From positions 1-64,000 of the IMG/VR virus record IMGVR_UViG_2513237087_000004: a stretch of DNA of 64,000 nucleotides. One strand, 5' to 3'. The notes under the pieces were generated by a model, which was not told the origin of the DNA, did no database searches, and saw nothing but the letters and a program-made list of their open reading frames with translations. Within the stretch, counting starts at the first letter, position 1. Every line of letters starts with the position of its first letter. A program made the translations under genes and the position numbers. Origin of the DNA: a virus. Its lineage: Duplodnaviria > Caudoviricetes. Below are positions 25,763 to 53,288 of the stretch, piece by piece.

Positions 25763-27484
25763 TCAGAGGACCAGGAAGCCGCGGGTCGCATACGCGCTGC
25801 CCACTGCTTCGGGGTTCAGGTTCATGAGCGAGGCGGCATCGAACGTCGCCATGAGCGGATCAATCTTCGCCACGCCGGCCGCCTGCTTCGTGATCATTTT
25901 GGAGTTGCCCTTTTGCTCCTGCTTCGCGTTGCCCACGCACCAGGACATCAGAGGGCTTCCCTCATGAACCAGGCTGCCCTTCGCCAGGCGGCGCTCCGTC
26001 ACCTTGATCGCGTTCTGCAGGGTGAAGCCCTGCCGGATGCCCACGATCAGCCCTGCCGCCTCGTCCGTGGAATTCGTGAAGCCGCGCAGCGTCAGCTCGT
26101 CGACGATGTCGTTGACGCCTGACGGATCGACGCCGACGCCACGCTCCTCCGGAAGCAGTCCGGCTCGACTGATCTGCTCGACGATATCCGCGACCCCTTG
26201 AACGTCCTCGTCGGAGTCGTCCTCAATGATCGTGAGCACGCCAGCTTTCGCCAGGTCCTCGAGCTTCGACGCGATGCTCTTACGCTGCTCGGTCAAGACG
26301 CAGCGGTGGCACCAGGCATGGTTCCACAGCAGCCACCGTCGGGTGTCCTTCTCGCGACCGATCACGGCCATTCCCAGAAGGTCGTCCATGCCGCCGCCGT
26401 CGACGCCGACCACCACGACCTCGCAACGATCGAGCAGTTGTTGCAGTCGCTCCGTCGGCGTAGCCTCGGCCATGTCCTTGTCGGCACGACGCAACCAGAA
26501 CTTCGCCCCGATCCAAGCCCCAGAATTGGAACCGAGCCCGATCTCGATGTTCAGGTGCTGAGAGGCCCACACCTTGACGGCGTGCTCGCCTTTCTCGCGC
26601 TCGTCCGAAAGGTCCTGCTTGAGGCTCTCCAAGTGCACCGATAGGCCCAGGTTGGGCATGACCATCGGCCAGTTCGCCGGGTCAGACCACAAGTCCTCGT
26701 CCTTGGCGATCCGCGCAGGGAACTCGTAGAGGACCGGGAGCATCCGGCCGGCCCGCTTTCCGTCGCGGATCATGCGAGCGATCATCAGCTCGTCCTTGAA
26801 GACGCCGGTCGGCTCCTCGTCGCTCTGCGTCGAGGTGAAGATCAGGAAGCCCTCGGTGTTCTTCTCCAGGCCGCCGCGGATCTGGCGCAGTACCTTTGCT
26901 GCCTTGGCTTCCTTGCCGAGCAGATGAAGTTCGTCGATCAGCACGCCGACCGGCTTGGGCCCGGTGAGGACCTTCAGGTCAAACGTCTTGATCTTGAGCT
27001 TCGCGCGGTTCGTTCGGTCCTCGATCTGCTTGATGTGGTCCCGAATGTGAAACCGCTTCAGCAGCACCGGATCAGCTTCGATCATGCCGGCGGCCTGGCT
27101 GAATGCCAGCTCAGCTGTCGACTGCATCGGCGCCACGAGCAGGAACTCGGCCCGCGGCCGGATATTCATGAGCAGCGCCACGAGCATAAGCGCGGCGCTG
27201 TAGCTGGTCTTGCTGCTGCCCTTCGGCGCCAGCGCGAAGATCTCGCGGATATGGCGCACGTTGGTCGCCGGGTCGCGCTAGCCGAAGAGCGCGCGGACGA
27301 TATCCCTGAACCACTGACCTGACGCATCCCGCAGAAGCGGTTGGTCGGGCACGTCTGGCAGCACTAATCCGTCGTAGAATGCCTGGCCCGCGTCTGCCTC
27401 TTCCAGAAAGAGCGGCAGATCGGGCACCAGCGTGGTGCGCTCGACGATGCGGCGCTCCCAATCCCGACAGGACAGGTCCCACAT
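25763..27484 (-). pseudogene. terL: Terminase large subunit interrupted by an in-frame TAG at 27278-27280
   Basis: The 68-aa ORF (WDLSCRDWERRI...WFRDIVRALFG*) continues in the same frame with RDPATNVRHIREIF, the Walker A-like PKGSSKTS, Walker B VLIDELH and nuclease motifs VGVDGGG and KIDPLMA. Confidence 0.9.
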
Positions 27485-28059
27485 CAGTGAGAGCGGCGTA
27501 CCGCGGCCGCGCGTTGTGCCATCATTTTGCCCATGGCGGTCGCGGTGTCGGGGTTATTCGCCGCCTCCACCAGCGCCTCCTTCTTGCCGAGCGACTTTGC
27601 TTTCTGCTGGCGGCTCGTCCGGGGAGCCCCGTCGCCATCCGCGATGCCCAACGGCTTGCCGAAGCCCCAGCTGAGCAGTTCATGCGCGGCCTGCCGGCGC
27701 ACAGCCTCGCTCTTGGCGGTGGCGGTGAGGTGCGCGAGCGACACGAGCGCCAGATACGCGAGCGAACGGGCAGCTTTCGATAGATCGAACTGGTCCTCAA
27801 CGACGGCCGGGATGCTGTAAGTATTCGCAAGTATCCGAATATCAGACAGGTTGAATTCTTCGACCTTTCCGAACGCCGACTTTTCTGCATCTGCCTGCGC
27901 GAAATCGGCGGCGATGCGCGACCAGCCATCAAGCTTGGCGCGCCGGCGGATGGAGCTCTCCGCGATGCCGTGCGCCCGGGCGATTTCCCGCACCTTCATT
28001 GAAGAAGTACGGAATTCGCGTTCGATGGATGCCCAGTCGATCTTCTTGCTGCGAGCCAT
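27484..28059 (-). CDS. terS: Terminase small subunit
   Basis: Directly upstream of and overlapping terL; N-terminal HTH; C-terminal GKKE motif. Confidence 0.7.
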   Translation of the reverse strand: MARSKKIDWASIEREFRTSSMKVREIARAHGIAESSIRRRAKLDGWSRIAADFAQADAEKSAFGKVEEFNLSDIRILANTYSIPAVVEDQFDLSKAARSLAYLALVSLAHLTATAKSEAVRRQAAHELLSWGFGKPLGIADGDGAPRTSRQQKAKSLGKKEALVEAANNPDTATAMGKMMAQRAAAVRRSH

Positions 28060-28116
28060 CGATCACCAGCCGGAAATGCGCACCCTGCGCAGATGCGCAG
28101 CAGTTCGACGCCTCAA

Positions 28117-28191
28117 GAATAAAACCTACAAGTGACTGCCCTACGCGGTGGAGGCCCCAGGCCTTTCTGGAGTTTTCGCCCCCCTCCCCCT
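28117..28191 (-). other. Putative cos/packaging region
   Basis: Minus strand GGGGGAGGGGGGCGAAAACT...ACCGCG...CAGTCAC...TTTTATT immediately upstream of terS, resembling pre-terS sequences of HK97-like cos phages. Confidence 0.45.
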
Positions 28192-28371
28192 TGGTCGACG
28201 CCGCAGGCCATATCTCAACTCCGTCGAGGCGGCGCGCTATTGCCGGAGTTGGTTGGGAATTGGGATTTATCTTCCATTTTTTATTGTCGACTACTTGACC
28301 GTCGAATTCGGCCGTGCCCTCATATGGGCGTCACCAGGGCATTTCAGCCCGCCTCAATAGGAGACCGTGAC

Positions 28372-28515
28372 ATGCGACCCACTTTCATCCCCTGCGCCTC
28401 CCGCTCCACCGCGAAGCGTCACGCCCCTTGGGCGGTGGTCATTACCCGTGCTGACGGTGGCTTCCTGGCCTTCGACAGCGTGACCACGCACGCCACCTGG
28501 CGCCGGCAGAAGTGA
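28372..28515 (+). CDS. Small hypothetical protein (47 aa)
   Basis: AGGAG SD; MRPTFIPCASRSTAKRHAPWA... Confidence 0.65.
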   Translation: MRPTFIPCASRSTAKRHAPWAVVITRADGGFLAFDSVTTHATWRRQK

Positions 28516-28525
28516 GGGGGCGGAC

Positions 28526-28621
28526 ATGAGACACGACAGACACAGCAACCCGCGCCTCCGCATTCGTCGGTCGGAGCGCCGCGCCGCCATCTCCCGCAAG
28601 CATGCGTTCCTGGAGGCCTGA
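28526..28621 (+). CDS. Small basic peptide (31 aa)
   Basis: Read by eye; GAGGGG SD; fills the gap between neighbouring genes. Confidence 0.45.
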   Translation: MRHDRHSNPRLRIRRSERRAAISRKHAFLEA

Positions 28622-28625
28622 GATC

Positions 28626-28979
28626 ATGGAGACCTTGCTGTATGGCCTCTACGCCACCACCAGCAGCGCAGGCGGATGCGCCGTGCTGCGGTTCGGTGAT
28701 CTGGAGCACACCGGGAAGCCGGTCACCTTGGCCCTTGGCGTCACAGCAGCTGAAGCGGCGGACGTGATCGAGGCCGATATCGTCTTCGGCGGCTGGCGCC
28801 AGGGGCAGCCGGGCCGCGCGCCCCGCACTCTCGACTATGAGCACGTGGCCGGCGGCGCCGTGGAGTTCTTCAACGCGGTGGACGGCGTCGCGCTATGGAC
28901 CCTGCCGCCCTGCCTCGCCTGGGCTGCTCCGCTGGTGTGGCGCCTGTCCTGGCGCATCGTGCGGAGGGGCTGGCTATGA
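28626..28979 (+). CDS. Hypothetical protein
   Basis: ATG 28626; ATGA overlap with the next gene. Confidence 0.6.
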   Translation: METLLYGLYATTSSAGGCAVLRFGDLEHTGKPVTLALGVTAAEAADVIEADIVFGGWRQGQPGRAPRTLDYEHVAGGAVEFFNAVDGVALWTLPPCLAWAAPLVWRLSWRIVRRGWL

Positions 28980-29977
28980 GCGATCTCGCGACCTTCACGG
29001 GCGACGTGCTGACGGTCTCCGCCGGCACCTTCTCCCTCTCCCTCACCGTCAAGCAGATTGAGACGGCGTGGGACGCCCTGTCTCAGATCCCGGAGCGACG
29101 CGCACGGCATGAGTTGGGCGCGCTCGCTGAGAGGCTGAACGGGTTCGGCGCCTATGTCGCGGCGCTGGTGGCTTCCGGCGGCGCGCTGGACGCCCCGGCG
29201 GAACTGGAGCGGTTCGCGTCTTGGCATGTCCACCTGACGCGCCGCGCCTGGAATATGGATGCGCGGTGCATGTCGTGGTTCGTGGTCGGGCCCTCCCGCT
29301 TCCCGGTGGACCGGAACGCCAAGCGCCTGCGTTGGGCCGATGCCGCGTATCGGGCAGCCCGCGACCATGCCGCCGCCGCCCGTAAGGCAGTCGAACGCGT
29401 AGCGTTCCCGCACGGTGTCCCCGGCGGGGCGAGCCGCGCCGCGAACCCCGACGCGCCCGAACTGATCCGCGCCAAGATCGAGAAGCACCGCGCCTTACAC
29501 GCCGCCATGAAGGCGGCGAACGCGGCCATTCGGTCGGCGAAGGGCGATGACGTTGAAGCCATGGTGCAAGCCGTGGTCGACGTGACGGGCTGGCGCGAGG
29601 CGACGGCGCGCGCCAGCGTCGTGCCTGCGCAGTCGTGGATGGGGCGCGGCTTTCCCGCCTACGCCTTGTCTGGCGAGCTCGCCGAAATCAAGCGGCTCGA
29701 GGACCGCTTGCGCGCCATTGAGGCCAATCGGGAGCGCGGCACGGTGTCGATGAGGCACAACACCAGCGCCGGCGCGCTGGAGGTGGTCGAGAATCCCGAC
29801 GCCGCCCGCATTCAGCTCATCTTCCCCGGTAAGCCGGACGACGCCACGCGGGCGGTACTGAAGCGTCAAGGGTTCCGCTGGGCGCCTTCCGAAGGTGCCT
29901 GGCAACGACACCTGAATAATGCCGGCCGGCACGCCGCGAAATGCGTCGTCTCCGCGCTTCAACTCACGGAGGCCTAA
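28976..29977 (+). CDS. Conserved mobile-element protein (plasmid leading-region/polyvalent-protein type)
   Basis: SWFVVGPSRFP...GFPAYALS...IKRLEDRL...ENPDAARIQLIFPGKPD...LKRQGFRWAPSEGAWQR, recalled from conjugative-element proteins. Confidence 0.7.
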   Translation: MSDLATFTGDVLTVSAGTFSLSLTVKQIETAWDALSQIPERRARHELGALAERLNGFGAYVAALVASGGALDAPAELERFASWHVHLTRRAWNMDARCMSWFVVGPSRFPVDRNAKRLRWADAAYRAARDHAAAARKAVERVAFPHGVPGGASRAANPDAPELIRAKIEKHRALHAAMKAANAAIRSAKGDDVEAMVQAVVDVTGWREATARASVVPAQSWMGRGFPAYALSGELAEIKRLEDRLRAIEANRERGTVSMRHNTSAGALEVVENPDAARIQLIFPGKPDDATRAVLKRQGFRWAPSEGAWQRHLNNAGRHAAKCVVSALQLTEA

Positions 29978-29981
29978 AGCC

Positions 29982-30284
29982 ATGAGCGCTCCCGCAACCC
30001 TCTCCCCTGATGCCTCCGCCGTCCTGCGCTGGTGCGAGGCAGACGCTCACCCCTGCTCATTCTCGCCGCTGCTGGCGATCGATTGGGATTGGCACGCCGT
30101 CTCCGCCGCCCTGGGCCTCGGTGACTGGCACCACAACAGCCACTGGCCGCGCATCCATGCCGCCCTGGACGAGCTGCATGCCGCCGGCCGGCTGGCCTAC
30201 CACGACCACGGGCCGAACACTTACGGCCACACCACCACGATGCTGGTGCCCGCGCCGGCGCGCCAGCGGGCACCCGCCCGATAG
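29982..30284 (+). CDS. Hypothetical protein
   Basis: ATG 29982; 100 aa. Confidence 0.55.
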   Translation: MSAPATLSPDASAVLRWCEADAHPCSFSPLLAIDWDWHAVSAALGLGDWHHNSHWPRIHAALDELHAAGRLAYHDHGPNTYGHTTTMLVPAPARQRAPAR

Positions 30285-30342
30285 TCCCCTTCCCCTCAAC
30301 CGATCAGGGCGCTTCAGCCCGCCTCACCATAGGAGCACGATC

Positions 30343-31200
30343 ATGCACCACACCGGCCTTGACGCCTTCACTGCCCGCCCCGCGCGCACCGCTTTGGAGC
30401 GCCGCACCGTCGCCCTGGCAGCCTATGACGCGGCGAAGCTGGATCCCGTCGCCGACTGGCGCACCGTCGCCGATATGCTCGCTGCTGCGCTCCCCGCGCC
30501 GCGCGCCAAGGGGGCTCCGGCGGCACCGGAGGCGGAACCGGCACCGGAATTCACCGCGTGGGAGGATCACGCCATTCCGCGCAACTTCCGAAGCGACCTG
30601 CCTTCGCCCGTGGTCGTCTTCACCTTCGCAGACGGGACCGAGGTGCGGGCGCCTGCCGTCACCGCCAAGCGCAAGCCGCTCAATATCGGTCGTGCGGCGC
30701 GCGTGGCGTGCGAGTTCTATCGCAACCGCGTCCTGTGCCGCTCCGGTCTCCTGAAGGCGTATCCCGAAGGAATCCGGGCGGTGGTGGTGGTGCCCGCCAT
30801 CATATCCATTGAGGCGCCCGGTGCTCTCTATGACATCGGCGACGCCAACGAGCGGACGAAGGAGCTTCGCGGCGGCACGTTTGACGTCGCGGCCGAGGTG
30901 GCCCGGCTCGCCGACTTGCCCGAGAAGAAGCGCGCGGAGATCCTCCGCTTGCGCTTCATCGCGGCGTGCCTGCGCCGCCTCATGCTCGACCCGGGCGCGA
31001 ACACCAAGGAACTGGCCATTCAGGCCCGCATCGCGGAAGCGGCGGCGGATGGCGCCGACTTCGCTGAACTGCGTGCGCTCGAAACGGAGATGCGGCGCCC
31101 GCCGCGCCCGCCGGTGACCGCGATCATGCGAACCTACCTCGGCTCAACGTCCAGGGTCGCGCTCTGCGTCGTGGCCGGTGCCGGCGAGGTGGCGGCATGA
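30343..31200 (+). CDS. Hypothetical protein
   Basis: AGGAG SD; 285 aa; ATGA overlap with the next gene. Confidence 0.65.
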   Translation: MHHTGLDAFTARPARTALERRTVALAAYDAAKLDPVADWRTVADMLAAALPAPRAKGAPAAPEAEPAPEFTAWEDHAIPRNFRSDLPSPVVVFTFADGTEVRAPAVTAKRKPLNIGRAARVACEFYRNRVLCRSGLLKAYPEGIRAVVVVPAIISIEAPGALYDIGDANERTKELRGGTFDVAAEVARLADLPEKKRAEILRLRFIAACLRRLMLDPGANTKELAIQARIAEAAADGADFAELRALETEMRRPPRPPVTAIMRTYLGSTSRVALCVVAGAGEVAA

Positions 31201-31769
31201 GCCCGCGCGCCAGATTCACCCCTGCCGGCGCCGTCAAGGTCTCCGACAAACTGTCCGATGCCGTGGCGTTCGTCTACGAGCGGCGGGGCAGGCCCATCGC
31301 TTGCGTCTACGTGGGCAACCAGTCCAAGCCGGTGAGCGCCTACAGCTACCGAAGCGCGCTGGACCGCGAGCGTTCCATCCGCGCGGCGTTCGAGGCCCGG
31401 CGCGCCGCGATGGCCGTGAAGCGCCAGCGGCAGGAAGAACGAAAGGCCTACCGGCCGGCGTGCAAGCCGGGGGACGTCCTCGGAACCTGCTGGGGATACG
31501 AGCAGACCAACCGCGAATTTTTCGAGGTGATCGAGGTCAAGGGGAAATTCGTCATCCTGCGCGAGCTGGCGCAGGAACGGATTGACACGGGATGGAGCCA
31601 GGGCAAGGCCGTGCCCCTCCCTGGCTCCTATGTCGGGGAGCCGATCCGCCGCCTTGCGCAACCGCACGGCATCCGTATCGACTCCTGCCGCCTCGCGACG
31701 CCCGCCGCCGTCGAGGACGTGGCCGGCGTCAAGGTGGTGAAGCCCGTCGGCTGGAGTTCCTACGCATGA
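31197..31769 (+). CDS. Conserved hypothetical protein (GD...WGYEQTN.EFFEV motif)
   Basis: Motif recalled from plasmid and phage early-region proteins; coupled on both sides. Confidence 0.7.
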   Translation: MSPRARFTPAGAVKVSDKLSDAVAFVYERRGRPIACVYVGNQSKPVSAYSYRSALDRERSIRAAFEARRAAMAVKRQRQEERKAYRPACKPGDVLGTCWGYEQTNREFFEVIEVKGKFVILRELAQERIDTGWSQGKAVPLPGSYVGEPIRRLAQPHGIRIDSCRLATPAAVEDVAGVKVVKPVGWSSYA

Positions 31770-32257
31770 CGCGCTCCGCTTCCAACGTTCGCAGGCTCCG
31801 GCCTCCCGAGGTGCCGCCCAAGCCGGCGCGGCGCGTCTCCCTCGCTCGGATCAATCGCCAGCGCGTGGCGGCTGCCGGTGCGGCGGCCGTGGCCGTGGTG
31901 CTGACGGGGTTGTCCCTGTCCCACCTCTCCCACGGCATCCACCTGGTGACGCAGGCGCCGCCGGCCGAATCATGGGCCATGGCCACTGGCGTCGACCTGG
32001 GCTTCATCGCCTCGGAACTGGCCATGCTTTGCGCTTCGACCGAAGCCGTCCGGCGCAGCGTGGCGCGCTTTGCTCAGCCGGCCATTGCTGGGACGCTGGG
32101 CATGTCCGCTGCGCTCAATGCCCTGGCATTCGCCCTGCCGATGGACGGATGGCAGCTCTATGCCGCCGCCGCCCTCGGCGTCGCCATTCCGGCCCTGGTC
32201 TATGCGCTCGCCCGCGTAGCCTTCGCGCTGGCCACCCAGGGACCGCGCGAGGCTTAA
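31766..32257 (+). CDS. Multi-pass membrane protein (DUF2637/SpdA-like)
   Basis: Four hydrophobic helices; SWAMATGVDLGFIA motif. Confidence 0.55.
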   Translation: MTRSASNVRRLRPPEVPPKPARRVSLARINRQRVAAAGAAAVAVVLTGLSLSHLSHGIHLVTQAPPAESWAMATGVDLGFIASELAMLCASTEAVRRSVARFAQPAIAGTLGMSAALNALAFALPMDGWQLYAAAALGVAIPALVYALARVAFALATQGPREA

Positions 32258-32629
32258 CCCCCGCTCGGGCCTGTGTCCGGCCAACCCTTCTCCCCCCTCT
32301 CGGGCCTGTGCCCGAGGGACCAGAGACGCCAGTTCATGCCGCACCAGGTGCGCGGCGTGGTCGGGCGCCTATGCCCGGCACACCAGAGGATGCACGATGG
32401 ACCGATCCGCCTTCGCCCTTGAGCTCGCCGAGACGCATCAGCGCGTCGAAGGAATCTATGCCTCCCTCAGGGAGTTAGCCCCGCACATTGAGGCCATGCG
32501 GAGCGGCACGCAGCGCCGGCGGAGCGGCGCATTGGGCTTGGCGCGCGCTGTGCTATCGTTCTGGCACTGAGGGGCCCGCCGTTGGAGACGACAGCCCCGC
32601 CATGCGAACGAGCGGACGGGCGCCACGCT

Positions 32630-32887
32630 ATGACCGGGGACGAGATCAAGGAAGCGCGCCAGCGCCTGGGCCTGTCCACCGCGCAACTCGGGATCGCCCT
32701 GGGCCTGGGCGGAAAGACGGCGAACATCTCCAAGATGATTCGGCGCATCGAAAGCGGAGACGGCTTCCTTACGCCAGCCCAGTCACGCCTGCTGGTCATG
32801 TTCATCCGCTTTGGGGTGCCGGCCGACATGCTCGACGAGGATCCGAATGCGGCCGGGCGGGCGCACCATGTCGCGCCGGCCGACTGA
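32630..32887 (+). CDS. XRE-family HTH regulator
   Basis: MTGDEIKEARQRLGLSTAQLGIALG...IRRIESG. Confidence 0.8.
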   Translation: MTGDEIKEARQRLGLSTAQLGIALGLGGKTANISKMIRRIESGDGFLTPAQSRLLVMFIRFGVPADMLDEDPNAAGRAHHVAPAD

Positions 32888-33009
32888 TCCACCCCGCTCG
32901 GATCTGTGCCCCCTGCTCGGATCAATTTCTGCGGCGGCCACGTCCGAATATTGAGGTTTCAACGGAACCGACCCGATGGAACAACACGCCGAACTTGTGT
33001 CCCCGCCAA

Positions 33010-33038
33010 TTGACGATACGCGTGGATTGTAACATTTT
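33010..33038 (+). promoter_or_regulatory. Putative sigma70 promoter
   Basis: TTGACG-N17-CATTTT upstream of the AGGAG SD and ATG 33098. Confidence 0.4.
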
Positions 33039-33097
33039 CCTCCATGTCAGCAGCCGCTGGCGCCGCGCCTCGGGCAACGGGGGCAGGAGACAGGCCC

Positions 33098-33532
33098 ATG
33101 GCCAAGTACGACATCACCTTTTCTTGCGGCCACACCGAGACCCGCCAGTTGGTGGGCAAGGAAACCCAGCGCCACTCATACATCGCCTGGGCCGAGCGTG
33201 CCGGCCGCTGCTCCGCCTGCGCCAAGCTGGACAAGATGGCCGCGATCGAGGCTGTCGAGGTCGAGCACGACCTGCCCGCCCTGACCGGCTCCGACAAGCA
33301 AGTCGCTTGGGCGCGCACAATCCGGGCCGAGATCATGGGTGAGGTGATGGAGTATCTCACCACGTTGCGTGTTAAAGCCGAGGCGCAGGACAAGGTGGCG
33401 GAGTATGAGGAGCGCGCCGCCGTGCTCCTCCAGGTCATCGGGGCCAATACGGCCGCCCGCTACTGGATCGACAACAAGGGCCGCCCCGCACGCGAGTTGC
33501 TCCTGTCCGCCCACAAGGTGACGGCGCAATGA
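33098..33532 (+). CDS. Conserved hypothetical protein with putative Zn site
   Basis: SCGH...CSAC...LPALTGSDKQVAWA...YWIDN motif recalled from mobile elements. Confidence 0.7.
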   Translation: MAKYDITFSCGHTETRQLVGKETQRHSYIAWAERAGRCSACAKLDKMAAIEAVEVEHDLPALTGSDKQVAWARTIRAEIMGEVMEYLTTLRVKAEAQDKVAEYEERAAVLLQVIGANTAARYWIDNKGRPARELLLSAHKVTAQ

Positions 33533-33927
33533 CCGTCCTCGTCGCCGTCGCCGGCCAACCGACGACCTGGCGGCCGACGCCGCCGGGGGCGGAAGCCGAA
33601 GCAATAGCCGCCATCGAGGCACTTTCCCGGCGCGTCCTCGCCCTCCGCCCGTTTGGATTTTTGGACCCTCCAGTCGCGCGAGCGAGCATGTGGCAAGACG
33701 TACTAACCGTCGTCGTCGACGCCCCCGGTGCCGGTTTGCTGCGGAGCTATATCGTGTCCGACTGGCGTTGGGGTGTCCTGTGGGAGGCCGATGACTGGCA
33801 TGAGGTCGGCTGGCACCCTTACGACTTGGGGTGTCTCAGCCTCGTCGGAGAGTGGCGGCGTTGCCTGTGGGATTGCCTCAATCCCGGCAAGCGCCCCAGT
33901 CGCAAGCTAAGGCGGATGCCCGCGTGA
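33529..33927 (+). CDS. Hypothetical protein
   Basis: Overlap-coupled on both sides. Confidence 0.55.
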   Translation: MTVLVAVAGQPTTWRPTPPGAEAEAIAAIEALSRRVLALRPFGFLDPPVARASMWQDVLTVVVDAPGAGLLRSYIVSDWRWGVLWEADDWHEVGWHPYDLGCLSLVGEWRRCLWDCLNPGKRPSRKLRRMPA

Positions 33928-34379
33928 CCTATATCTCGCACATCACGCTCAACACTGGGCACCGCCGGCGCTCTGAGGCGGGAGAGGTCGAGCCAGCCGT
34001 TCGCTCCACGCTGCGCCTGGTGATTGCCGAGGCCTTGGCGCAGCATAGCGCGCGCATCCCCCTGGTGCCCGGGCCGCCCGACATCTCCATCAGCGGCGAC
34101 GCATACGGCCCCCACCTCCTGCTCACTGTTTGGGATGACCGCAGTGGCCTGCCGATCCTCACCTTCGCGGTCGCCCTGCGCTCGCGCGGCGCGGAGCGAC
34201 TTTGGGATGAGGTGTACCGCATGGGCCGTGAGCTTGCGGTGGACATCGCGGACATGCCCGCTGCGCCCTGGTGCGCCGCGGTGCTGCACCCGATGATCGT
34301 GCTGCGGCCGGACGCGCTGTCGTGGACCGGCGACATGGAGTGGTGCGTGGCCTGGACCTGGACGGAGATGAGGGACTAG
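33924..34379 (+). CDS. Hypothetical protein
   Basis: GTG start overlapping the upstream stop; 151 aa. Confidence 0.6.
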   Translation: MTYISHITLNTGHRRRSEAGEVEPAVRSTLRLVIAEALAQHSARIPLVPGPPDISISGDAYGPHLLLTVWDDRSGLPILTFAVALRSRGAERLWDEVYRMGRELAVDIADMPAAPWCAAVLHPMIVLRPDALSWTGDMEWCVAWTWTEMRD

Positions 34380-34381
34380 CG

Positions 34382-34702
34382 ATGGCCGGCAAACCAACAA
34401 TCGATCCCAAAGTGCACGCCAAGATCCGCCGCCTGGCCAGCCAGGGGCACGGCCGCAAGGACATTGCGGCGACGCTCGGCGTCAGCCTGTACACGGTGCG
34501 CAAGGCGCTCGATCCCGATTTTGTCGAGCGGGAGCGCGAGCGGCAAAGGGCGATCGGGCCGGAGCGCTACGCCCGCCGGAAAGACGACCCCGCCTATCAG
34601 GCCTACCAAGCAGACTATGCCAGCGCGCCGGAGCGCCTCGCGCAGGTCCGGGCGTCCATGGCGCTTTTGCGCAAGAACCGGCGCACACCCACCGAAGACT
34701 GA
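34382..34702 (+). CDS. HTH DNA-binding protein
   Basis: IRRLASQGHGRKDIAATLGVSLYTVRKAL. Confidence 0.75.
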   Translation: MAGKPTIDPKVHAKIRRLASQGHGRKDIAATLGVSLYTVRKALDPDFVERERERQRAIGPERYARRKDDPAYQAYQADYASAPERLAQVRASMALLRKNRRTPTED

Positions 34703-34763
34703 GACATATCCCAGGTGCCCAATCCCCTCCTCGGACCTGTGCCCGTCATACCCCCGCTCGAGC

Positions 34764-34979
34764 CTATGTCCGCCCCGCTGCTTCGCGCAGCACCGACAGG
34801 CTTATACCGTCGGTCAGAACCAACACCTCCACGGCCAGGCCTCGCTTGCGCAGGAACACCTTGAGCTCCCGCTGCAGCCTCTCTTCGGCGGCCGCGTCGA
34901 TCCTATCTCGGACGCCAAGCACCAGCGTATCGCCATCTCGGATGTCCAGCACTTCGACCTTGTCGATCACGCCGGTCAT
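34764..34979 (-). CDS. Hypothetical protein
   Basis: 71 aa, coupled to the upstream ORF. Confidence 0.55.
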   Translation of the reverse strand: MTGVIDKVEVLDIRDGDTLVLGVRDRIDAAAEERLQRELKVFLRKRGLAVEVLVLTDGISLSVLREAAGRT

Positions 34980-35224
34980 CGCGGCGGGGCGCCGACGGTG
35001 AGCATGATCGGAGGATGAGTGGTTCCGATGATCGATGAGAGCACCGGGGCGCCGGCGACGATGCGGGCGATCTCATCCGGTGTGGGAAACCATGCGGTGA
35101 TCATGGCCGGGGTGCCCTCTCCGCCGACGCTACAGTTGATGATCTCGTCGCGGATGGGCAGGCCCTGGTATCCCTGGCTCTCGCCGGCGATCCGCGTCGC
35201 GCCATCCACGTGCCCGATCTGCAT
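34976..35224 (-). CDS. Conserved phage hypothetical protein
   Basis: TGATG overlap with HNH; SQGYQGLPIRD...W.PTPDE motif. Confidence 0.65.
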   Translation of the reverse strand: MQIGHVDGATRIAGESQGYQGLPIRDEIINCSVGGEGTPAMITAWFPTPDEIARIVAGAPVLSSIIGTTHPPIMLTVGAPPR

Positions 35225-35541
35225 CAACGTGTCCTCTTCGAACGCTCGGCGGCGGTTTTCATCGAGTGGTGAGCCCCGCAGAGACACTGTCCGTTGGCGA
35301 CATCGAACTCGGCGCCGCCGTCCCGCCGCTCGACGATGTGGTCCGCGAACATCCGGTGCTTTGGCTGGGCCCTGTCACATCCCGGCCACTGGCAGCCGCC
35401 GCCTGCCCGGCGGATCACCTCTGCGGCCCAAGTCTTGTGGGCCTGGGTGCCATAGTGGGGATCGGTGAGCTTCGGCGGGGGTGCGGAGATCCGAACCGAT
35501 GCGCTACCGAGCCGGGGCGGAAGGCACTTCACGCGCGTCAT
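35224..35541 (-). CDS. HNH endonuclease (packaging-associated)
   Basis: CQWPGC...ADHIVERRDGG...NGQCLCGAHHSMKT. Confidence 0.9.
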   Translation of the reverse strand: MTRVKCLPPRLGSASVRISAPPPKLTDPHYGTQAHKTWAAEVIRRAGGGCQWPGCDRAQPKHRMFADHIVERRDGGAEFDVANGQCLCGAHHSMKTAAERSKRTR

Positions 35542-35602
35542 GCCGATCCCCCGATGGCGGTGGGGTAGAGCTCGCTTCTGCGGGCGGTCACTCGGGTCCA
35601 CC

Positions 35603-36554: not shown

Positions 36555-36740
36555 TCGGCCTCAGCGCCTGCCTGCTTGGCGTCCACGCTCGAAACTGCCT
36601 CGCCATTTACGGCCACTTTTTGATCATTCAGCCGGAGGCAAATCGGGGCCTGAAATGGATAGCGCCCGAGCCGTCTCCGGCCGGGCGCTCTTCTCGAATC
36701 GTCCATATTTATGCCGACCATCGGATTCTGCGTCAAGCAC

Positions 36741-37802
36741 TCACCGCGATGAGACCGGAACATTTTTCAACCTCTGCTCCCTCCGGCGCTCGGACTCTGC
36801 CCTGAGATCACGTGACAACTTCGTCTCAACTACTTGTCCGAATTTATCAATTTCCGTTATGATCGGCGGTGCGACGGGATCATGGCTGACGAGAATAGCC
36901 GGCGCGACGACCTTGCTCCCGCGCCCATCAACCTGCTTCTTCATCTTCGGCATCGGCGCCGCGACCAGCCCCCTCCATTTGGCGATTGCCTCGAGCGCAT
37001 CCTTCGTGATGCCGATGATATAGCCGTCAGCGATCTTATATTTCAGCGTCGACCACTTCGGCGCCACGTCCTTCAGTGGCGCGCCTTTGCCCACCAGGTC
37101 TTCCATCACCAGGTATGCTCGCATGCCGGCGGCCGCGCGGACCGCATCGGCTGCTCCGGCCACGTCCGCCGCCGCCATCAGCGCTGCGTCGCTCATGGTC
37201 GACGAAGGCAACCCGCCATCGGTGACCGGCTTGCCGAAGTCCTGGGCCTTGATCGTGCCGATGTTAGCGGCCTCATACCTGGCCCTGAACCACTCCGCCG
37301 CGGCCATTTCGTCCGCGTCGATCATCCCACTCCGAAACCAACGCGTCACGATGGACTCGCCGAAGTTCTTGGCTACGACGACACGGCCGCTATCGTTCGG
37401 ATCCTTGACCTCGGTCAGGACGATGTTGTGGTCCACCCGGGGGGGCTTGCGGGCTCCCTTGGTGTGCTTGGTGAGGTTGAGCGGATCTCCAGCCTTCCGT
37501 GCCTGCTCGCTGGCCCGGGCCTGCCGCTTAATCCTCTCGCGGATCGCCAGTGCGCCTGCCGTTTCCTTGCCGGCCTCATGCTCGAGCACCGCCCGGACAT
37601 CGTCGTACATCTGCTGCCTGTCCGCCTCGCGCTTTGCGGCTCGCTCGACATCCAGTTCGTAGGCGGCCCTTGCGCGGGCGGACGTTCGCTGCATATTGAT
37701 CATCTGCGCCTGGAGCTTGCGCTCGGCCCGGGCTGCATCGGCCTCACAGCGGGCGGCCCTCGCCTCGTCGATCAGGTCTTGTGCGATCGTCAGCTTCGCC
37801 AT
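36741..37802 (-). CDS. Putative late-transcription regulator (Q-position, DUF6456-like)
   Basis: Position at the end of the early operon; MIDADEMAAAEWFRARYEAA motif. Confidence 0.55.
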   Translation of the reverse strand: MAKLTIAQDLIDEARAARCEADAARAERKLQAQMINMQRTSARARAAYELDVERAAKREADRQQMYDDVRAVLEHEAGKETAGALAIRERIKRQARASEQARKAGDPLNLTKHTKGARKPPRVDHNIVLTEVKDPNDSGRVVVAKNFGESIVTRWFRSGMIDADEMAAAEWFRARYEAANIGTIKAQDFGKPVTDGGLPSSTMSDAALMAAADVAGAADAVRAAAGMRAYLVMEDLVGKGAPLKDVAPKWSTLKYKIADGYIIGITKDALEAIAKWRGLVAAPMPKMKKQVDGRGSKVVAPAILVSHDPVAPPIITEIDKFGQVVETKLSRDLRAESERRREQRLKNVPVSSR

Positions 37803-44723: not shown

Positions 44724-45938
44724 TCACATCAGCAACGGCTGAACGGTGCCGTCGGCATAGACGGAATCCATCGGCATGTCGGCATTCGGCTCGTCCCCAT
44801 CCCAGCCATTGGGCCACGTCTTGGCCGCGATCAGTTCGCGGATTCGGGATTCCTCTTCAGCATTGAGCAGGTCGATCAGCGGGCGACCCTGGGCCACGGC
44901 GGCGACGTTCACCTCGTCCTGGATCGTCAGGATCCGGTTCAGCGCCATCATTCTGGCATCGAATGTCAGCGGCCCCTGCCGCTGCTGGTTCTTCACCAGC
45001 GAGCCGTCCTTGCGCTTCTCGCCGCCGGGCTGCCGCAGCCGGTTCTTCGGTTCCCGCAGTTCCCGGTAGAGCGGCTTCAGCCCCTTCAGCGGCGCCAGAT
45101 AGGCCCACTGGGGGGCGCGCAGTATGGTGTCCAGCGCCAAGTCTTTAGAGGCCAATGGGCAGCCGGCGCAGCCGGTGCGCGCGTTGATCTCCTCCGCCTC
45201 GTCGCCGCCATAGGCATCTGCCACGGCCGCGCTCTCCCAGCCGCCATATTCCTCCATGGGCGCGTAGATGCGCAGCCAGTCCCACACGTTGCAGACGCGC
45301 CAGTGCAGGATGGGCGCAAGGGTCGCAAGCCGGCCACGGATGCCCTTCGCCTCCGGCAGCAGCTTCTGGTACCAGCCCTGCCCGCACTCAGCCCCGTTCG
45401 TCCCGCAGGACATGGTGATGCGCTGGTCGCGCACCGCGCTTTCTCCCTCGCGAACGCCGGTGATCATGAGCACCTGGCCGTCGATGCTGGCGAGCCTCGC
45501 CTCGAGCGCATCGGCCATGGGGTCGATCTTGATCTGCCGAGTGCACCAGCGCAGCGTGTTGTTGTTCGGGGGCGGCACGCCCCGTCCCAGGATGTAGACG
45601 AGGAAACGCTTGTCCAAGGGCGCGCGCACCACCTCGCAATGGATGCCGCGCGCAGCGAGCTGCGCCATGATCCGCGTCGCGGAGATGTACAGGGGCGGAA
45701 GCTCCTGGCGAGTGTCGGCGTAGAAAACCGTAAGGGACTTCGGCGGGGCGATCCGTCCGACATCAATCAGGTGCACGATGAGGGTTAGCGTCGCCGTGGA
45801 ATCCTTGCCGCCTGACCAAGCGATGGCCCAATGGTCATGCAGCGGGCCATAGGCCTGCATCGACGCGACAGTGAACTCGACAGCTTCATCATAGGCGAGC
45901 CGCTTCGACCCTTCGAATAGTGTTGGTTGTGCGGTCAT
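44724..45938 (-). CDS. PAPS-reductase-family (DndC-like) protein
   Basis: AWSGGKDS PP-loop; RWCTRQIKIDP; TGVREGES; RTGCAGCP. Confidence 0.85.
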   Translation of the reverse strand: MTAQPTLFEGSKRLAYDEAVEFTVASMQAYGPLHDHWAIAWSGGKDSTATLTLIVHLIDVGRIAPPKSLTVFYADTRQELPPLYISATRIMAQLAARGIHCEVVRAPLDKRFLVYILGRGVPPPNNNTLRWCTRQIKIDPMADALEARLASIDGQVLMITGVREGESAVRDQRITMSCGTNGAECGQGWYQKLLPEAKGIRGRLATLAPILHWRVCNVWDWLRIYAPMEEYGGWESAAVADAYGGDEAEEINARTGCAGCPLASKDLALDTILRAPQWAYLAPLKGLKPLYRELREPKNRLRQPGGEKRKDGSLVKNQQRQGPLTFDARMMALNRILTIQDEVNVAAVAQGRPLIDLLNAEEESRIRELIAAKTWPNGWDGDEPNADMPMDSVYADGTVQPLLM

Positions 45939-46321: not shown

Positions 46322-47135
46322 GGCGCCTTCTCGTATTGCGATAGAGGACGACGATCAGCGCACGCCAGCGCGGCATGCCTTTCGCCGCAGCGAACTGTGC
46401 GGCCTCTCGGTCAGCCGAAGGACCCATGCCGCGGATCGCGGTGGCGAGATCGCTGGACTCCACCTCGCCGGCATAATCCGCACCGTGCAGCAGTTCGCTG
46501 GCCGCTTTGAGCAGATCGGCCGAGATCGGCGCGCACTTCGCTTCCACCAGGCACTGCACCACCTGCCGGGCTTTCATCGCGCCGAGGCGCGAACACATGG
46601 AGCGGAGGGTGGAGATCGCCATGGTGTCGCCCACCTCATAGGCACCATTGGCGGGCGGAACCTTCAACACCCGCGCGCCGGCCCGCTCACACACCTGCTG
46701 GATGGTCTGCTCATCAGGGTCACCGGCCGCCACGGCCGCGTGAAAGAGTTGGGTTGGCGTGACCGAGATGCGGTCGCGATTGTGCCCGATGAATGCCCGG
46801 GCCCGCTGGAGCAGATCCGCAGCTTCCACCACCATGACCGGGATCTCCGCAATGTCGGGATGCGACGCCGCTGCCAAGGCAGTGTGCTGGCCGTCGAGCA
46901 CATGAAACGCGCCGTCGATCTCAACCACCACCGGCGGTTTGAAGCGGCGCCAGTCCCACTCGCCGATGATCCGGCGAAGCAGACGCATGGATCGCTCGGA
47001 CAGGTTGCGCTGATAGGTATCGTCGACCAGCAATTTTTCCGGCGCGATCCAGATGAACCGGGGAGCCGCGGTGATCGCGACCGAAGGGGTAAGGTCGGGA
47101 AAGACCAGCGGAGAGATGGGGCGGATCTGCGTCAT
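46299..47135 (-). CDS. ParB/DndB-like protein
   Basis: LLVDDTYQR...PPVVV...LDGQHT motif. Confidence 0.75.
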   Translation of the reverse strand: MTQIRPISPLVFPDLTPSVAITAAPRFIWIAPEKLLVDDTYQRNLSERSMRLLRRIIGEWDWRRFKPPVVVEIDGAFHVLDGQHTALAAASHPDIAEIPVMVVEAADLLQRARAFIGHNRDRISVTPTQLFHAAVAAGDPDEQTIQQVCERAGARVLKVPPANGAYEVGDTMAISTLRSMCSRLGAMKARQVVQCLVEAKCAPISADLLKAASELLHGADYAGEVESSDLATAIRGMGPSADREAAQFAAAKGMPRWRALIVVLYRNTRRRHGSRSKA

Positions 47136-49246
47136 TCCGCTGCCTCAAGGAAGAGCGACGCCTGACCGTGAGCAGGTGGGCGCCGGCGCGGCGCGCGCAC
47201 CTCGCGCGGCTGATAATTCGCCGCCACCAAAGCGCGGGACTCGGTCGGGCACACCGCGTTGCCGCACATATGCCCTTGCTGCTCCAGGCTGAACCGGATC
47301 ACCTCGCCGTCCTCGTCGAGGCCATGGTCAATGATGTAGTCGCGCGGGAAGCCGTTGGCGTTGTAGCGCTCTCGCGGGGTGAGCATCCGCATGCAGATGT
47401 CCACCACCACGAAGGTAGCCCCGTCGATGTCCACGGTGACGAGATCGCCGCCATCCCAGCAGCCGTGCGCCCGCAGGAAGTCCGCCACCTGGCGCGCCCG
47501 CGCCTCATGCTCGGCGCCGAAGGGCGGTGGTGCTGCCTCCGCCTGGACGAGGCCGAAGCGCGGCTTGGCGGTGTCCGTGCGCATCGGATCGACCACCGAG
47601 GCGCCATCGTCATCGGTGCCGTAATAGACGGTCATCAGCGGCAGGGACACGAGCGCGTCATGCTGACCGCCGGCGGACTGGGTGCGCACCGGCACGTCCG
47701 CCGGAGAATCCCGTCGCTCGCTCCCGCGCAGCGTCAGCATGTGGGCAGTGACAAGCGACTGCTGACTGCCGGTCACGGTGATGGTGGAGGCTGGCTCATC
47801 GGCTGGATGACCGGGGGCACCAGGGCGCGGCCCGTCGTTGTGCTGCGCCACATAAGCCGCCACCAGCGCGGTTTTGCCGCCGCCGCCCGCCGTGACAGTG
47901 CCAACCGGCTCGCCGGCATCCGAGCCCACCGACGCGCCGAACTGGCGGGACAGATGGACCACAGCGAGGCTGCCCTCATTGCCAGTGGGCACCGGGGTCG
48001 GCCCCGGCACATCCGCCGTATACGTGCGCGGCTCCTGACCCGGCCGCTCCCCGTAGCGGGGCACGAGATAAGGCGCGACCACACACAGGTCAGCCTTGGC
48101 CGTCTGCGTGAGCACCGGCACATCGCCGGGGCGCGGCTCGGACTGGCCGGCCCGGCCGCCACACCCCGCCAGCACGGGGGCGACGAGAGCATTCTGATCC
48201 TTGCGCGATGCCGTGATGGTCTGCACTGGCGCATCCGGCGCCCGCAGTCCGCCGCCCTGCTGGGCATAGGCCACGAAGGGCATGACGAGCGCATCGTCCC
48301 GCTTGCCGGTCATGGCGGTGAGCGGCACGTCCGTCGCTCGGTCGCGCGCCTCATCGCGCGCGGTGTGGTTCACCTTCACCACGAAGGGCCGCGCCGCATC
48401 GAGCACATAGCGCCGCACGCCCTTGGCGATGCGGGCCTGCGTCTTGTCCGCCAGCGGGCGCTTGGCGCGGATGCCCAGCTTGCGATGGATTTCCGCGCTG
48501 CTGTCGAAGATCGAGGGGATGGGCAACGTGAAGTCGATGCAGTCGGCCGCCGTCACCCAGGGCTTGAGCGTGCCGGCCGCGATGCGCGCCGCGTCCTCCG
48601 CCACGGTCGGGTTGCCGTGCGTCGACTCGGGCCACACGATGGGCTCGCCATCGCGGCGCATGATCATGTAGAGGCGCTTGCGGATGGTGCCAGAACCCGA
48701 GCCCCAAGCCCGCCGCTGGCGCCATTCGATCTGGCCATAGCCGAGATCCGCCCACGCCGCGCAGAAAGCCTTGAACGTTTCGCCTTTGCGCACCGGGCAG
48801 CGCTTTCCGTCGGGCTGGAGCGGCCCCCAATCCACGTATTCCTCGACGTTTTCGAGAAAGACGACACGCGGCCGCTGCCACTTGGGCAGGGCCTTGATCC
48901 AGCCGACGATGGCCCAGCCGATGCCCCGCGTGGTGCGGTCGCCATCCCGGCGCGGCGCCGCGCCCTTGGCCTTGGAATGGTCGGTGCAGTCCGGCGACAT
49001 CCAGAGCATGCCGATGGGCAGGCCCGCGCACATGGAGACGCTGTCCACCGTCGCCACGTCCTGGAGCAGGTGGCGCGTGGCCGGGTGGTTGATGCGATGC
49101 ATCGCCATGGCGAAGTGGTCATGGTTGATGGCGATGTCCGGATCGCGCCCGAGCGCCATGCGAATGCCGGTGCTGGCGCCCCCGCCACCGGCGAAGCTAT
49201 CGATCACCAGTTCATGCAAAGTGGCTCGTTGGACATGCACGTTCAT
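47132..49246 (-). CDS. C5 cytosine DNA methyltransferase with repeat-expanded variable region
   Basis: DSFAGGGGAS (motif I); WMSPDC (IV); LENVEE (VI); RKRL (VIII); RMLTPRE (IX); GNAVCP (X). Confidence 0.92.
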   Translation of the reverse strand: MNVHVQRATLHELVIDSFAGGGGASTGIRMALGRDPDIAINHDHFAMAMHRINHPATRHLLQDVATVDSVSMCAGLPIGMLWMSPDCTDHSKAKGAAPRRDGDRTTRGIGWAIVGWIKALPKWQRPRVVFLENVEEYVDWGPLQPDGKRCPVRKGETFKAFCAAWADLGYGQIEWRQRRAWGSGSGTIRKRLYMIMRRDGEPIVWPESTHGNPTVAEDAARIAAGTLKPWVTAADCIDFTLPIPSIFDSSAEIHRKLGIRAKRPLADKTQARIAKGVRRYVLDAARPFVVKVNHTARDEARDRATDVPLTAMTGKRDDALVMPFVAYAQQGGGLRAPDAPVQTITASRKDQNALVAPVLAGCGGRAGQSEPRPGDVPVLTQTAKADLCVVAPYLVPRYGERPGQEPRTYTADVPGPTPVPTGNEGSLAVVHLSRQFGASVGSDAGEPVGTVTAGGGGKTALVAAYVAQHNDGPRPGAPGHPADEPASTITVTGSQQSLVTAHMLTLRGSERRDSPADVPVRTQSAGGQHDALVSLPLMTVYYGTDDDGASVVDPMRTDTAKPRFGLVQAEAAPPPFGAEHEARARQVADFLRAHGCWDGGDLVTVDIDGATFVVVDICMRMLTPRERYNANGFPRDYIIDHGLDEDGEVIRFSLEQQGHMCGNAVCPTESRALVAANYQPREVRAPRRRPPAHGQASLFLEAAE

Positions 49247-49271
49247 GAGGCCATCTCGCTCATGTTCGCCT

Positions 49272-50264
49272 TCAGTGCTGGAGGAAGCTGATGCGCTTGG
49301 TCGAGGACCAGCACAGGGCGCAAGTGGAACAGGAGTCGGTCTTACCGACCTGCTGCGGGCAGAGGATCGCGTCGTCCGGCACCTGAAGCGGATGCTCCAC
49401 CGTGATGGTCGAGCACTCATCGATCGGCGCATTGGAGAAGCGGATGGCGAACCGGGCCCAGCGCTTCTTCACCAGGGCCACCAGGGCAGCGGCGATCGGG
49501 TCCTTCTCGACCTGCCACCTGGCGCTGAAGCCGAAGACGTGGAGTTCGGAGTGGCGGTCGAGCAGCGCGGCCCAAAGCTTGACGTAGCCGACCGAGTAGA
49601 AATCCCCAAGGACGTGGAGGCGAACCGCGAAGCCCGCCGGATACCGGAACGACAGCACTGCCACCTCTGCGGCCAACCGCTCTTCCATGTCCGCGCCGTG
49701 CTCCACGCGGTTGGCGTGGTGCATGTGATTTCCGTAGCAGGACCGCCAATGCCGGCACGAACTCGGGCAGGTCGCCCGCTCCTCGAGCGTGAGCGTGAAG
49801 ACTGGGAAGCCGGACCAGGGCCCCTTCATGATCCGTTCGCCGATCTTCCAATGGTTCTTGCCGGAGACCAGAAGGTTGGGCAGCCCGCGGGGCGACACCA
49901 CCGTCGTCGGGTAGACGGAGCGCGCTTCGCTGAGCGCCGCGTGGTCCACAGGCGGCATGACCGCGCGTTCGGTGGTGGCCACCTTCGGCTCGAACCTCGA
50001 CAGCGCCGGACGGTCGGCCTTGCGGATTGGTTCGACCCCGCCGGCCCGCCGCCCTGTGGGCCGCTTCAAGTTCAGGCTGAGGCGTTTGATGCGCACATAG
50101 CCGGTGGAGATGCCGAAGGCCTTGGCCATCTGCTCGTCCGACCGTCCGGCGAGGAAGGCCTCCTTGATCTGCAGGTCAGTCACCTTTGGCCTGCGGCCCG
50201 GCGACGGTAGGCGAACGATCTCCGCTGAGATTATGGACGGGAGCACGCGGCCGGTGGCCTTCAT
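49272..50264 (-). CDS. GP88-like protein with N-terminal HTH
   Basis: TLEERATCPSSCRHWRSCYG Cys cluster; VRLHVLGDFYS. Confidence 0.6.
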   Translation of the reverse strand: MKATGRVLPSIISAEIVRLPSPGRRPKVTDLQIKEAFLAGRSDEQMAKAFGISTGYVRIKRLSLNLKRPTGRRAGGVEPIRKADRPALSRFEPKVATTERAVMPPVDHAALSEARSVYPTTVVSPRGLPNLLVSGKNHWKIGERIMKGPWSGFPVFTLTLEERATCPSSCRHWRSCYGNHMHHANRVEHGADMEERLAAEVAVLSFRYPAGFAVRLHVLGDFYSVGYVKLWAALLDRHSELHVFGFSARWQVEKDPIAAALVALVKKRWARFAIRFSNAPIDECSTITVEHPLQVPDDAILCPQQVGKTDSCSTCALCWSSTKRISFLQH

Positions 50265-53109: not shown

Positions 53110-53288
53110 CGCAGATCCTCGGCGACCCATCTTCCGACGGTTGAAACCACAAGGCCGCCCACGTAGACGAAGAAGGCAGCCCACCACAACTCGCTGCCCA
53201 CAAACATCGACGCGTATGAAATGGTGACGACCTCGGTAAACCTCCATCGGTTCAGGAAGAGGAACCTGGCGAACATCTTCAGTGCCAT
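53106..53288 (-). CDS. Small membrane protein
   Basis: Two hydrophobic stretches; coupled on both sides. Confidence 0.5.
   Translation of the reverse strand: MALKMFARFLFLNRWRFTEVVTISYASMFVGSELWWAAFFVYVGGLVVSTVGRWVAEDLR

Follow-up and report, generated by a model that had tools for sequence, protein, structure and literature searches.

A block of plus-strand genes, here called the cassette, was analysed in a 64,000-nt stretch of viral DNA (the window; positions 1 to 64,000 of IMG/VR record IMGVR_UViG_2513237087_000004), where it lies between the HNH endonuclease gene and the small terminase gene (terS) of a prophage. With moderate confidence we take the cassette to be an independently transcribed, early-type accessory operon of an HK97-like alphaproteobacterial prophage, lodged in a recurrent cargo slot directed away from the terminase genes. 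Judged by its genes and their relatives, an early-type 'establishment' cassette is the likely reading, and a first-injected anti-defence role is plausible.

The preliminary description, made from the window alone, had reported a 6.4-kb reversed block of mostly small genes between HNH and terS, and our re-analysis agreed with it. Frame analysis based on G+C content at third codon positions (GC3), together with exact matches to public called proteins, gave about 12 solid and 2 tiny plus-strand genes from 28372 to 34702 (c0a, c0b and c1–c12). By the same GC3 analysis the block sits between a long minus-strand head-tail operon (3.9–27.5 kb) and the early and replication genes (34.8–55 kb), likewise on the minus strand. 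It splits the HNH-terS-TerL module of cos type (TerL, large terminase), of which all three genes are present. Two small minus-strand genes, m1 and m2, intervene between cassette and HNH, so that the two do not abut.

Among the relatives compared, a reversed cassette was found in the HNH-terS spacer only in the window and in two sister phages, L008 (TerL 77% identical) and L102 (TerL 95% identical). HNH and terS had been said to be close neighbours as a rule, and this held in the relatives: their spacing is about 60 nt in L103 and L104 (TerL 53% identical) and 58 nt in phage RcapNL (NC_020489), which has no cassette, and in the Bradyrhizobium phage ppBeUSDA76-1 HNH stands directly before the terminase genes, again with no cassette. 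The cassettes that occupy this position vary in content, which is what the preliminary description had proposed to look for. That of L102 comprises c1 and c3–c8 with an extra gene between c3 and c4, and lacks c2 (c1 abuts c3), c9–c12, m1 and m2. That of L008 has only c2, c5 and a c8-like gene in common with the window, and genes for a DnaN clamp and an ATP-dependent ligase are additional; the c9–c12 module is missing there too, and m1 and m2 are 56–57% identical (ratio of nonsynonymous to synonymous divergence, dN/dS, about 0.18). The cassette was thus shown to be modular (c0–c6, c7–c8 and c9–c12), with c2 separately mobile and the modules joined by a lineage-specific 20-nt repeat. As judged from these genome comparisons, it was also shown to be a cargo slot with accreting modules, inserted into a spacer of about 60 nt relative to distant kin. 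A separate integrated element with its own att ends, such as a satellite or a fragment of an integrative and conjugative element, had been named as a contrary outcome in the preliminary description and was rejected: no integrase, recombinase or relaxase and no flanking att-like repeats were found, and no repeat is common to the borders at 28.06–28.37 kb and 34.70–34.77 kb.

The genes of the cassette were shown, by codon-level comparison among the three phages, to be under purifying selection. The dN/dS ratio was 0.07–0.32 for c1 and c3–c8 against L102 and 0.14 for c2 against L008, where synonymous divergence between the compared phages was 0.3–1.1. Ten chosen starts (c1–c6 and c8–c11) reproduce proteins called in a public collection. 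The strong Shine-Dalgarno sequences of the preliminary description were found as ribosome-binding sites of the GGAG type upstream of cassette genes. An open reading frame (ORF) at 32273–32422 was rejected as a gene, as it overlaps repeats and has a dN/dS of 1.6.

The slot recurs outside this lineage. The families of c2 and c5 each gave more than 500 matches in viral contigs. The probes were three types of TerL and a single portal, and with a packaging gene required within 10 kb, 19 c2 or c5 loci were informative. At 16 of them TerL or portal lay upstream on the opposite strand (at 0.5–4.6 kb where the alignment reached the TerL start, and at a greater distance in a few), a count that we read as an indication and not as a statistic because the phages are related and the probes few. 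L008 and L009 have the same divergent layout with Pfam-annotated neighbours, and in L013 a c2 homologue is placed between the portal and MuF genes.

Homology to plasmid leading regions

The AlphaFold2 model of c2 (predicted local distance difference test, pLDDT, 93.7) is built of a beta domain at the N-terminus, a long stretch of helices and an alpha/beta domain at the C-terminus. When searched with Foldseek in BFVD, it matched a DUF3560 phage protein (E 1.2e-12) and related phage proteins (E 1e-16 and 2e-15). The protein itself gave no match to Pfam PF12083 (DUF3560) at E<=0.1, and weak PF12083 matches were obtained for 13 of 41 c2 homologues (best E 0.0011). The PHROG family of c2, phrog_19458, is annotated as primase because some cultured phages have the C-terminal domain joined to a primase. 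This domain resembles the MotA DNA-binding domain (MotA-CTD) at a Z of only 7.6, which is within the chance range. Neither c2 nor c5 had a Foldseek match in the PDB at E<=0.001, and a wide VIA-align comparison of both returned only generic helical-hairpin, MotA-CTD-like and SH3/Tudor-like matches (Z<=8.3).

Homologues of c2 were found by tblastn on 383 plasmids, 205 of them conjugative. On rhizobial plasmids the homologue directly follows psiB and is translationally coupled to it. On the Ancylobacter plasmid pLGM, a 71% identical c2 belongs to an array of genes read in one direction, among them ssb, a methyltransferase gene and a large gene of the ParB type, beside traG/traD/traC, and in two Ancylobacter genomes c2 alone is conserved, at 71%, in different surroundings. 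In the supplement of Samuel et al. 2024 (PMC11541004), a leading-region family of 1,913 members annotated DUF3560/YdbA is among the abundant families, and Klebsiella papers place a DUF3560 gene among the IncF protospacer targets, with the ssb-to-methyltransferase interval.

For the second family, c5 homologues were found on 2,351 plasmids, of which 2,206 were conjugative. In the model of c5 (AlphaFold2, pLDDT 92.8), an alpha/beta domain at the N-terminus is followed by an SH3/Tudor-like barrel at the C-terminus, the barrel at a weak Z of 5–6. The c5 homologue of pOXA-48 is a leading-region ORF in an array with an antirestriction gene, ssb and mobA/traI. Comparison of the c5 profile with this ORF by hhalign gave 99.4% (E 5e-22), and the invariant motif WGYEQTN is common to both. 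By sequence or profile comparison and by genomic context, c2 and c5 are true homologues of conjugative-plasmid leading-region genes. The earlier impression that several proteins of the cassette look like those of leading regions is therefore right for at least these two, and the accompanying statement that no gene has a nameable function now applies in part: c2 and c5 have been placed in families and the rest are unnamed. On plasmids, the leading-region homologues of c2 and c5 accompany psiB, ssb, ardA-type genes, methyltransferases and transfer genes.

The remaining proteins gave few leads. Pfam, NCBIfam and PADLOC searches of the cassette proteins returned no informative matches and PDB sequence searches nothing significant. 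For c4, family, PDB sequence and atlas searches pointed to neither a family nor a fold; in L022, a homologue with 35% identity stands downstream of a c2 homologue. An atlas search placed c9 in an unnamed family of Actinomycetota and phages, and no Pfam domain was found in its longer relatives. A PDB match of c9 to AcrIF23 covers 30 residues at E 0.033, below significance, and c1 was rejected as a PsiB homologue for lack of similarity. Of the two helix-turn-helix regulators in the preliminary description, c8 (88% identical in L102 and 45% in L008) and c12 do match helix-turn-helix families, but weakly.

Plasmid leading regions (PMC11541004) and the cassette are alike in having one-directional, small and mostly uncharacterised genes with strong ribosome-binding sites and variation from element to element, and in the two homologous families, DUF3560/YdbA-like c2 and c5 with its likeness to the pOXA-48 ORF. 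They differ in that the cassette belongs to a phage with double-stranded DNA, not to single-stranded transfer, and has no oriT, relaxase or Frpo-type single-strand promoter. Nor did the 14 ORFs match the hallmark genes ardA, klcA, psiB, ssb or an orphan methyltransferase in Pfam, NCBIfam or PHROG.

A piece of a plasmid leading region might have been captured by accident and be carried passively, with no role for the phage. The 71% identity of c2 to a gene on a plasmid of the same family of bacteria and its presence in some sister phages and not others would suit such a capture. We nevertheless consider it very improbable, as purifying selection acts on c1–c8 including c2 at the synonymous divergence given above, the regulatory skeleton is kept in three phages, and phages of unrelated types repeatedly have both families in this slot.

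Leaders, arginine-rich peptide and junction repeats

In the window, L102 and L008, conservation in the 310-nt interval from terS to the first cassette gene was well above the coding background. On the cassette side of this interval, a promoter-like region and leader 1 are kept in both sisters. The leader motif, composed of GTCAC, a GGGC-N5-6-GCCCGCC hairpin, GGAG and GTGAC-ATG, occurs in exactly two copies in each of the three phages. The repeated leader noted in the preliminary description is real, with 2 copies found and 0 expected. The gene behind leader 2 is c4 in both the window and L102 but DnaN in L008.

In both sisters leader 1 leads directly into a gene of the c0b type, with no counterpart of c0a. 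No other coding element of the cassette is as well conserved as the encoded arginine-rich peptide of 31–32 aa (window 28526–28621, plus strand; L102 about 9022–9117, minus strand; L008 9607–9705, plus strand), which is the second ORF in the window. It has no Pfam or PHROG match. Its core may resemble the arginine-rich RNA-binding motif of lambda N. A possible likeness to lambda N/nut antitermination would consist in the conserved arginine-rich peptide together with the GGGC-N5-6-GCCC hairpin; no family or Rfam match was obtained, and the stem is invariant and shows no covariation.

A 20-nt junction repeat, CCCCGCTCGGGCCTGTGYCC, often paired, directly follows the stop codons of c6, c8 and c12, and was not found elsewhere in the genome beyond chance. 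It marks module junctions in L008 and L102 as well, always on the cassette strand. Leader and junction repeats folded no better than shuffled sequence and had no Rfam match, and we therefore read them as sequence-specific sites and recombination joints. Cassettes of the integron type were rejected, as no integrase or recombinase domain was found and the repeats are direct, confined to one strand and no stabler in folding than shuffled sequence. In L008, the open frame that links DnaN to the c5 homologue contains three tandem junction repeats (13390–13470), across which the codon-position signal is lost; a 748-aa 'DnaN-c5 fusion' in this phage is probably an artefact of the open frame crossing the three repeats. 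A consensus scan for intrinsic terminators detected none, apart from one irrelevant terminator-like site. Start-associated sequences of Cluster K mycobacteriophages are reportedly short conserved motifs just 5' of the ribosome-binding site of selected genes. The leader described here differs in having two copies per phage and a GGGC-N5-6-GCCC hairpin, and a separate repeat marks gene ends.

In the mechanism that we propose, host RNA polymerase would transcribe the cassette soon after DNA entry, and the products would have incoming DNA or host factors as their targets, through DNA binding or protection, help in replication, end-sealing and possibly counter-defence, an establishment role like that suggested for the leading regions of plasmids. 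The cassette may be regulated, through the leader hairpins and the repeats, by the arginine-rich peptide together with both helix-turn-helix proteins, and opposing late transcription would shut it down. The DnaN and ligase genes of the sister cassette point to expression in lytic growth or establishment rather than in lysogenic conversion, and to a role in establishment and replication at least as much as in anti-defence.

Several observations weigh against an early establishment operon. The TTGACC element with its upstream A/T-rich stretch was recognised as a putative cassette promoter by eye, and the consensus promoter scan found no promoter. No known anti-defence, defence, SSB, PsiB or methylase family was found among the cassette proteins, and the fold matches of c2 and c5 are generic and within the chance range (Z 7.6 and 5–6, respectively). 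The c2 family also occurs within co-directional gene arrays in many low-GC phages, and its C-terminal domain is part of annotated mid-genome primases in cultured phages, so that the slot is not obligatory for this family. The membrane protein c6 and the two helix-turn-helix regulators would also fit a moron expressed in the lysogen. Finally, codon 69 of TerL is an in-frame TAG (27278–27280, minus strand), where L102 and L008 both have a TCG-type serine codon; unless this is a sequencing error or a suppressed codon, the present copy may be packaging-defective and the phage no longer active.

The moron explanation, by which the cassette would be expressed by the prophage to the benefit of the host (superinfection exclusion by c6, immunity by the helix-turn-helix proteins, or an undescribed defence), would account for an operon that opposes all lytic genes with a plausible promoter and regulators of its own, that includes a membrane protein, and whose ORFs are intact and selected while TerL has a nonsense codon. 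Cargo slots near cos or terminase are moreover known for lambda and P2. With the moron slots in the Rz-cos interval of lambda and the P2-type hotspots, the cassette has in common a variable cargo, here putatively transcribed on its own, at an operon boundary beside the packaging genes, whose presence and content differ among close relatives. It is larger (about 14 genes), however, has internal regulators, a common leader and junction repeats, and carries families of the plasmid establishment type rather than known defence or virulence genes. As PADLOC found no match and a DnaN clamp and a DNA ligase make little sense as lysogen cargo, we hold a moron to be unlikely and keep to the early-type accessory operon.

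The cos site and the order of DNA entry

Whether the cassette stands at the first-entering end depends on the cos site, which for first injection would have to lie between terS and the cassette. The cassette would then be the right-hand end of the virion DNA, packaged last and ejected first, and a pre-early anti-defence module active ahead of the arrival of the remaining genome, which we regard as possible though doubtful. Packaging and ejection of the lambda type have an established polarity. Two families of the cassette are those of leading regions, and both are found repeatedly in divergent orientation upstream of TerL. A single-copy noncoding block (28112–28190) that separates terS from the putative cassette promoter is, in addition, kept in three phages, in whose alignment CAAGAATAAAACCT, GCGGTGGAG and a C-rich run are invariant, and the promoter reads inward from it. 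This block could be a cos or terminase-binding site or, equally, an activator-dependent late promoter. The preliminary description had placed a cos-like sequence near terS: the C-rich run at 28179–28190 exists, within the block kept in the two sisters, but nothing marks it as cos. The block was not found in other viral contigs, and a metagenome scan with its 14-mer was too unspecific and gave no true relative. Directly 5' of the terS start, at 28060–28110, are three TGCGCA hexamers spaced by 8–9 nt, which L102 retains and L008 lacks; these are possible operator or terS-binding sites.

Against first injection stands phage RcapNL, the only related phage with mapped and annotated cohesive ends (TerL about 42–44% identical). 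It has the same TerL family and packaging module, in the order cos, gp01, HNH, terS and TerL, with cos about 1 kb upstream of HNH; a cos of this type would place the cassette near the last-entering end and contradict first entry. The tight HNH-terS spacing of L103 and L104 likewise suggests that the ancestral cos lay upstream of HNH. A second conserved block follows m6 (36647–36741), at a position analogous to the cos region of RcapNL, and could be a late promoter-attenuator of the lambda PR'/tR' type ahead of m5, m4 and HNH, or an alternative cos. Besides the doubt over the terS-side block and the lack of any known anti-defence family, ejection by siphoviruses is fast and a timing advantage from position is hypothetical. 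Homologues of c2, c5 and c9 were no commoner near viral contig ends than expected by chance, and these ends are poor stand-ins for termini, with TerL in mid-contig where checked, or terminal repeats of the assembly type. In L109 (377–652) and L110 (187–462), inward-reading c9 homologues were seen 190–380 nt from the ends of near-complete viral contigs, with TerL in mid-contig. We judge a cos beside terS and a cos upstream of HNH to be equally possible, neither of them quite probable in itself, and a site elsewhere to be clearly less so.

The T7-like phages, with their ocr / 0.3 region, and the first-step-transfer DNA of T5 follow the logic proposed for first injection, with genes read by host RNA polymerase near the entering terminus. 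Termini, stepwise entry and timing are experimental there, whereas the cassette is known from sequence and belongs to a temperate siphovirus of the HK97-like type. As a tentative and somewhat improbable extension, temperate cos phages of alphaproteobacteria may possess a true counterpart of the leading region, cos-proximal, inward-reading and transcribed by host polymerase, which would serve establishment and counter-defence, trade c2 and c5 with plasmids, and be controlled by the arginine-rich peptide and the hairpins. DUF3560/YdbA and the WGYEQTN proteins would then be general 'entry helpers' for incoming mobile DNA.

Cargo slots near cos or terminase and leading-region islands of plasmids are both already known. 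To our knowledge, a phage cassette with leading-region families, a recurrent divergent slot on the terS side and a skeleton of leaders, peptide and repeats has not been described. According to a 2026 preprint, no systematic study has asked where anti-defence genes of phages lie with respect to the entering end. Plasmid leading regions have recently been recognised as stores of anti-defence and establishment genes, mostly uncharacterised, and the recurrence of the DUF3560/YdbA and WGYEQTN pOXA-48 ORF families in a phage slot links two kinds of invading DNA. The cassette thereby offers a compact and comparable system for working out the function of both families. Should cos lie beside terS, the cassette would be a first case of positional 'leading-region' logic for a temperate siphovirus; with cos elsewhere, it would still be a clearly delimited hotspot for cargo, with leader hairpin, mini-peptide and junction repeats as its unusual regulatory skeleton.

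Prophage setting and feature coordinates

The features of the packaging module, the cassette and the conserved noncoding DNA are compiled in Table 1.

Table 1. Packaging genes, cassette genes and conserved noncoding elements in the window (identities and dN/dS against L102)
Feature	Coordinates	Strand	Description
TerL, large terminase	25763..27484	-	PF20441 TerL_nuclease, E 3e-14
terS, small terminase	27484..28059	-	phrog_1206, E 5e-16
Conserved noncoding block beside terS	28112..28190		CAAGAATAAAACCT 28114-28127, GCGGTGGAG 28145-28153, C-rich run 28179-28190
Putative cassette promoter region and leader 1	28265..28371	+	A/T-rich, TTGACC 28295-28300, GTCAC...GTGAC flanks, GGGC-N6-GCCCGCC 28337-28353, GGAG, ATG
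c0a, 47 aa	28372..28515	+	Good Shine-Dalgarno sequence (TAGGAGA); window-only ORF; uncertain gene
c0b, 31-aa arginine-rich peptide	28526..28621	+	RIRRxERRxAISRK core; present in all three phages
c1, 117 aa	28626..28979	+	No assigned function; exact called-protein match; 79% identity; dN/dS 0.27
c2, 333 aa, DUF3560/YdbA-like	28976..29977	+	phrog_19458, E 1e-36
c3, 100 aa	29982..30284	+	No assigned function; 89% identity; dN/dS 0.14
Leader 2	30305..30342	+	Second hairpin copy and ATAGGAG; heads c4 sub-operon
c4, 285 aa, orphan	30343..31200	+	80% identity; dN/dS 0.28
c5, 190 aa, WGYEQTN-motif protein	31197..31769	+	phrog_37844
c6, 163 aa, membrane protein	31766..32257	+	At least 3 hydrophobic segments (hydropathy scan); 91% identity; dN/dS 0.18
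Junction repeat pair	32258..32314	+	Two copies of CCCCGCTCGGGCCTGTGYCC, after c6
c7, 57 aa	32397..32570	+	79% identity; dN/dS 0.19
c8, 85 aa, helix-turn-helix regulator	32630..32887	+	phrog_14076, E 4e-8; weak HTH_31 match
Junction repeat	32892..32925	+	One full and one partial copy, after c8
c9, 144 aa, Zn-ribbon-like family	33098..33532	+	phrog_16123, E 2e-28; opens window-specific c9-c12 module
c10, 132 aa	33529..33927	+	No assigned function; exact called-protein match; no family match
c11, 151 aa	33924..34379	+	No assigned function; phrog_28365, E 1e-6
c12, 106 aa, helix-turn-helix protein	34382..34702	+	HTH_7/HTH_23 type; Pfam E ~8e-4, below cut-off; phrog_664, E 9e-5
Terminal junction repeat pair	34724..34772	+	Convergent end; overlaps m1 stop
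m1	34764..34979	-	Small late-side gene between HNH and cassette
m2	34976..35287	-	Small late-side gene between HNH and cassette
HNH endonuclease of packaging module	35224..35601	-	phrog_589, E 1e-18
Conserved block after m6	36647..36741	-	TTGACG-N17-CATAAAT, GATTC site, GC-rich hairpin, T-rich tail; window, L102, L008

A 319-kb contig, from a genome of 5.8 Mb with 65% GC, begins with the window. The source is a soil alphaproteobacterium, probably of the family Xanthobacteraceae, and the closest prophage relative is held by an Azorhizobium metagenome-assembled genome. By megablast, no close phage relative was found in GenBank, the one match being a chance-like 63 bp of a mycobacteriophage. The terS protein is 84% identical in L102 and 54% in L008. 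The early region codes for DnaB-like, primase-like, SNF2, PAPS-reductase-like, C5-methylase and GcrA-like proteins. Three of these, all on the minus strand, are a 766-aa C5 DNA methylase fusion (47132–49432), the PAPS-reductase-like protein (44724–45938) and the GcrA-like regulator (53288–53800). With the C5 methylase and others of these genes in the early region, the phage would already have self-protection of the methylation type outside the cassette.

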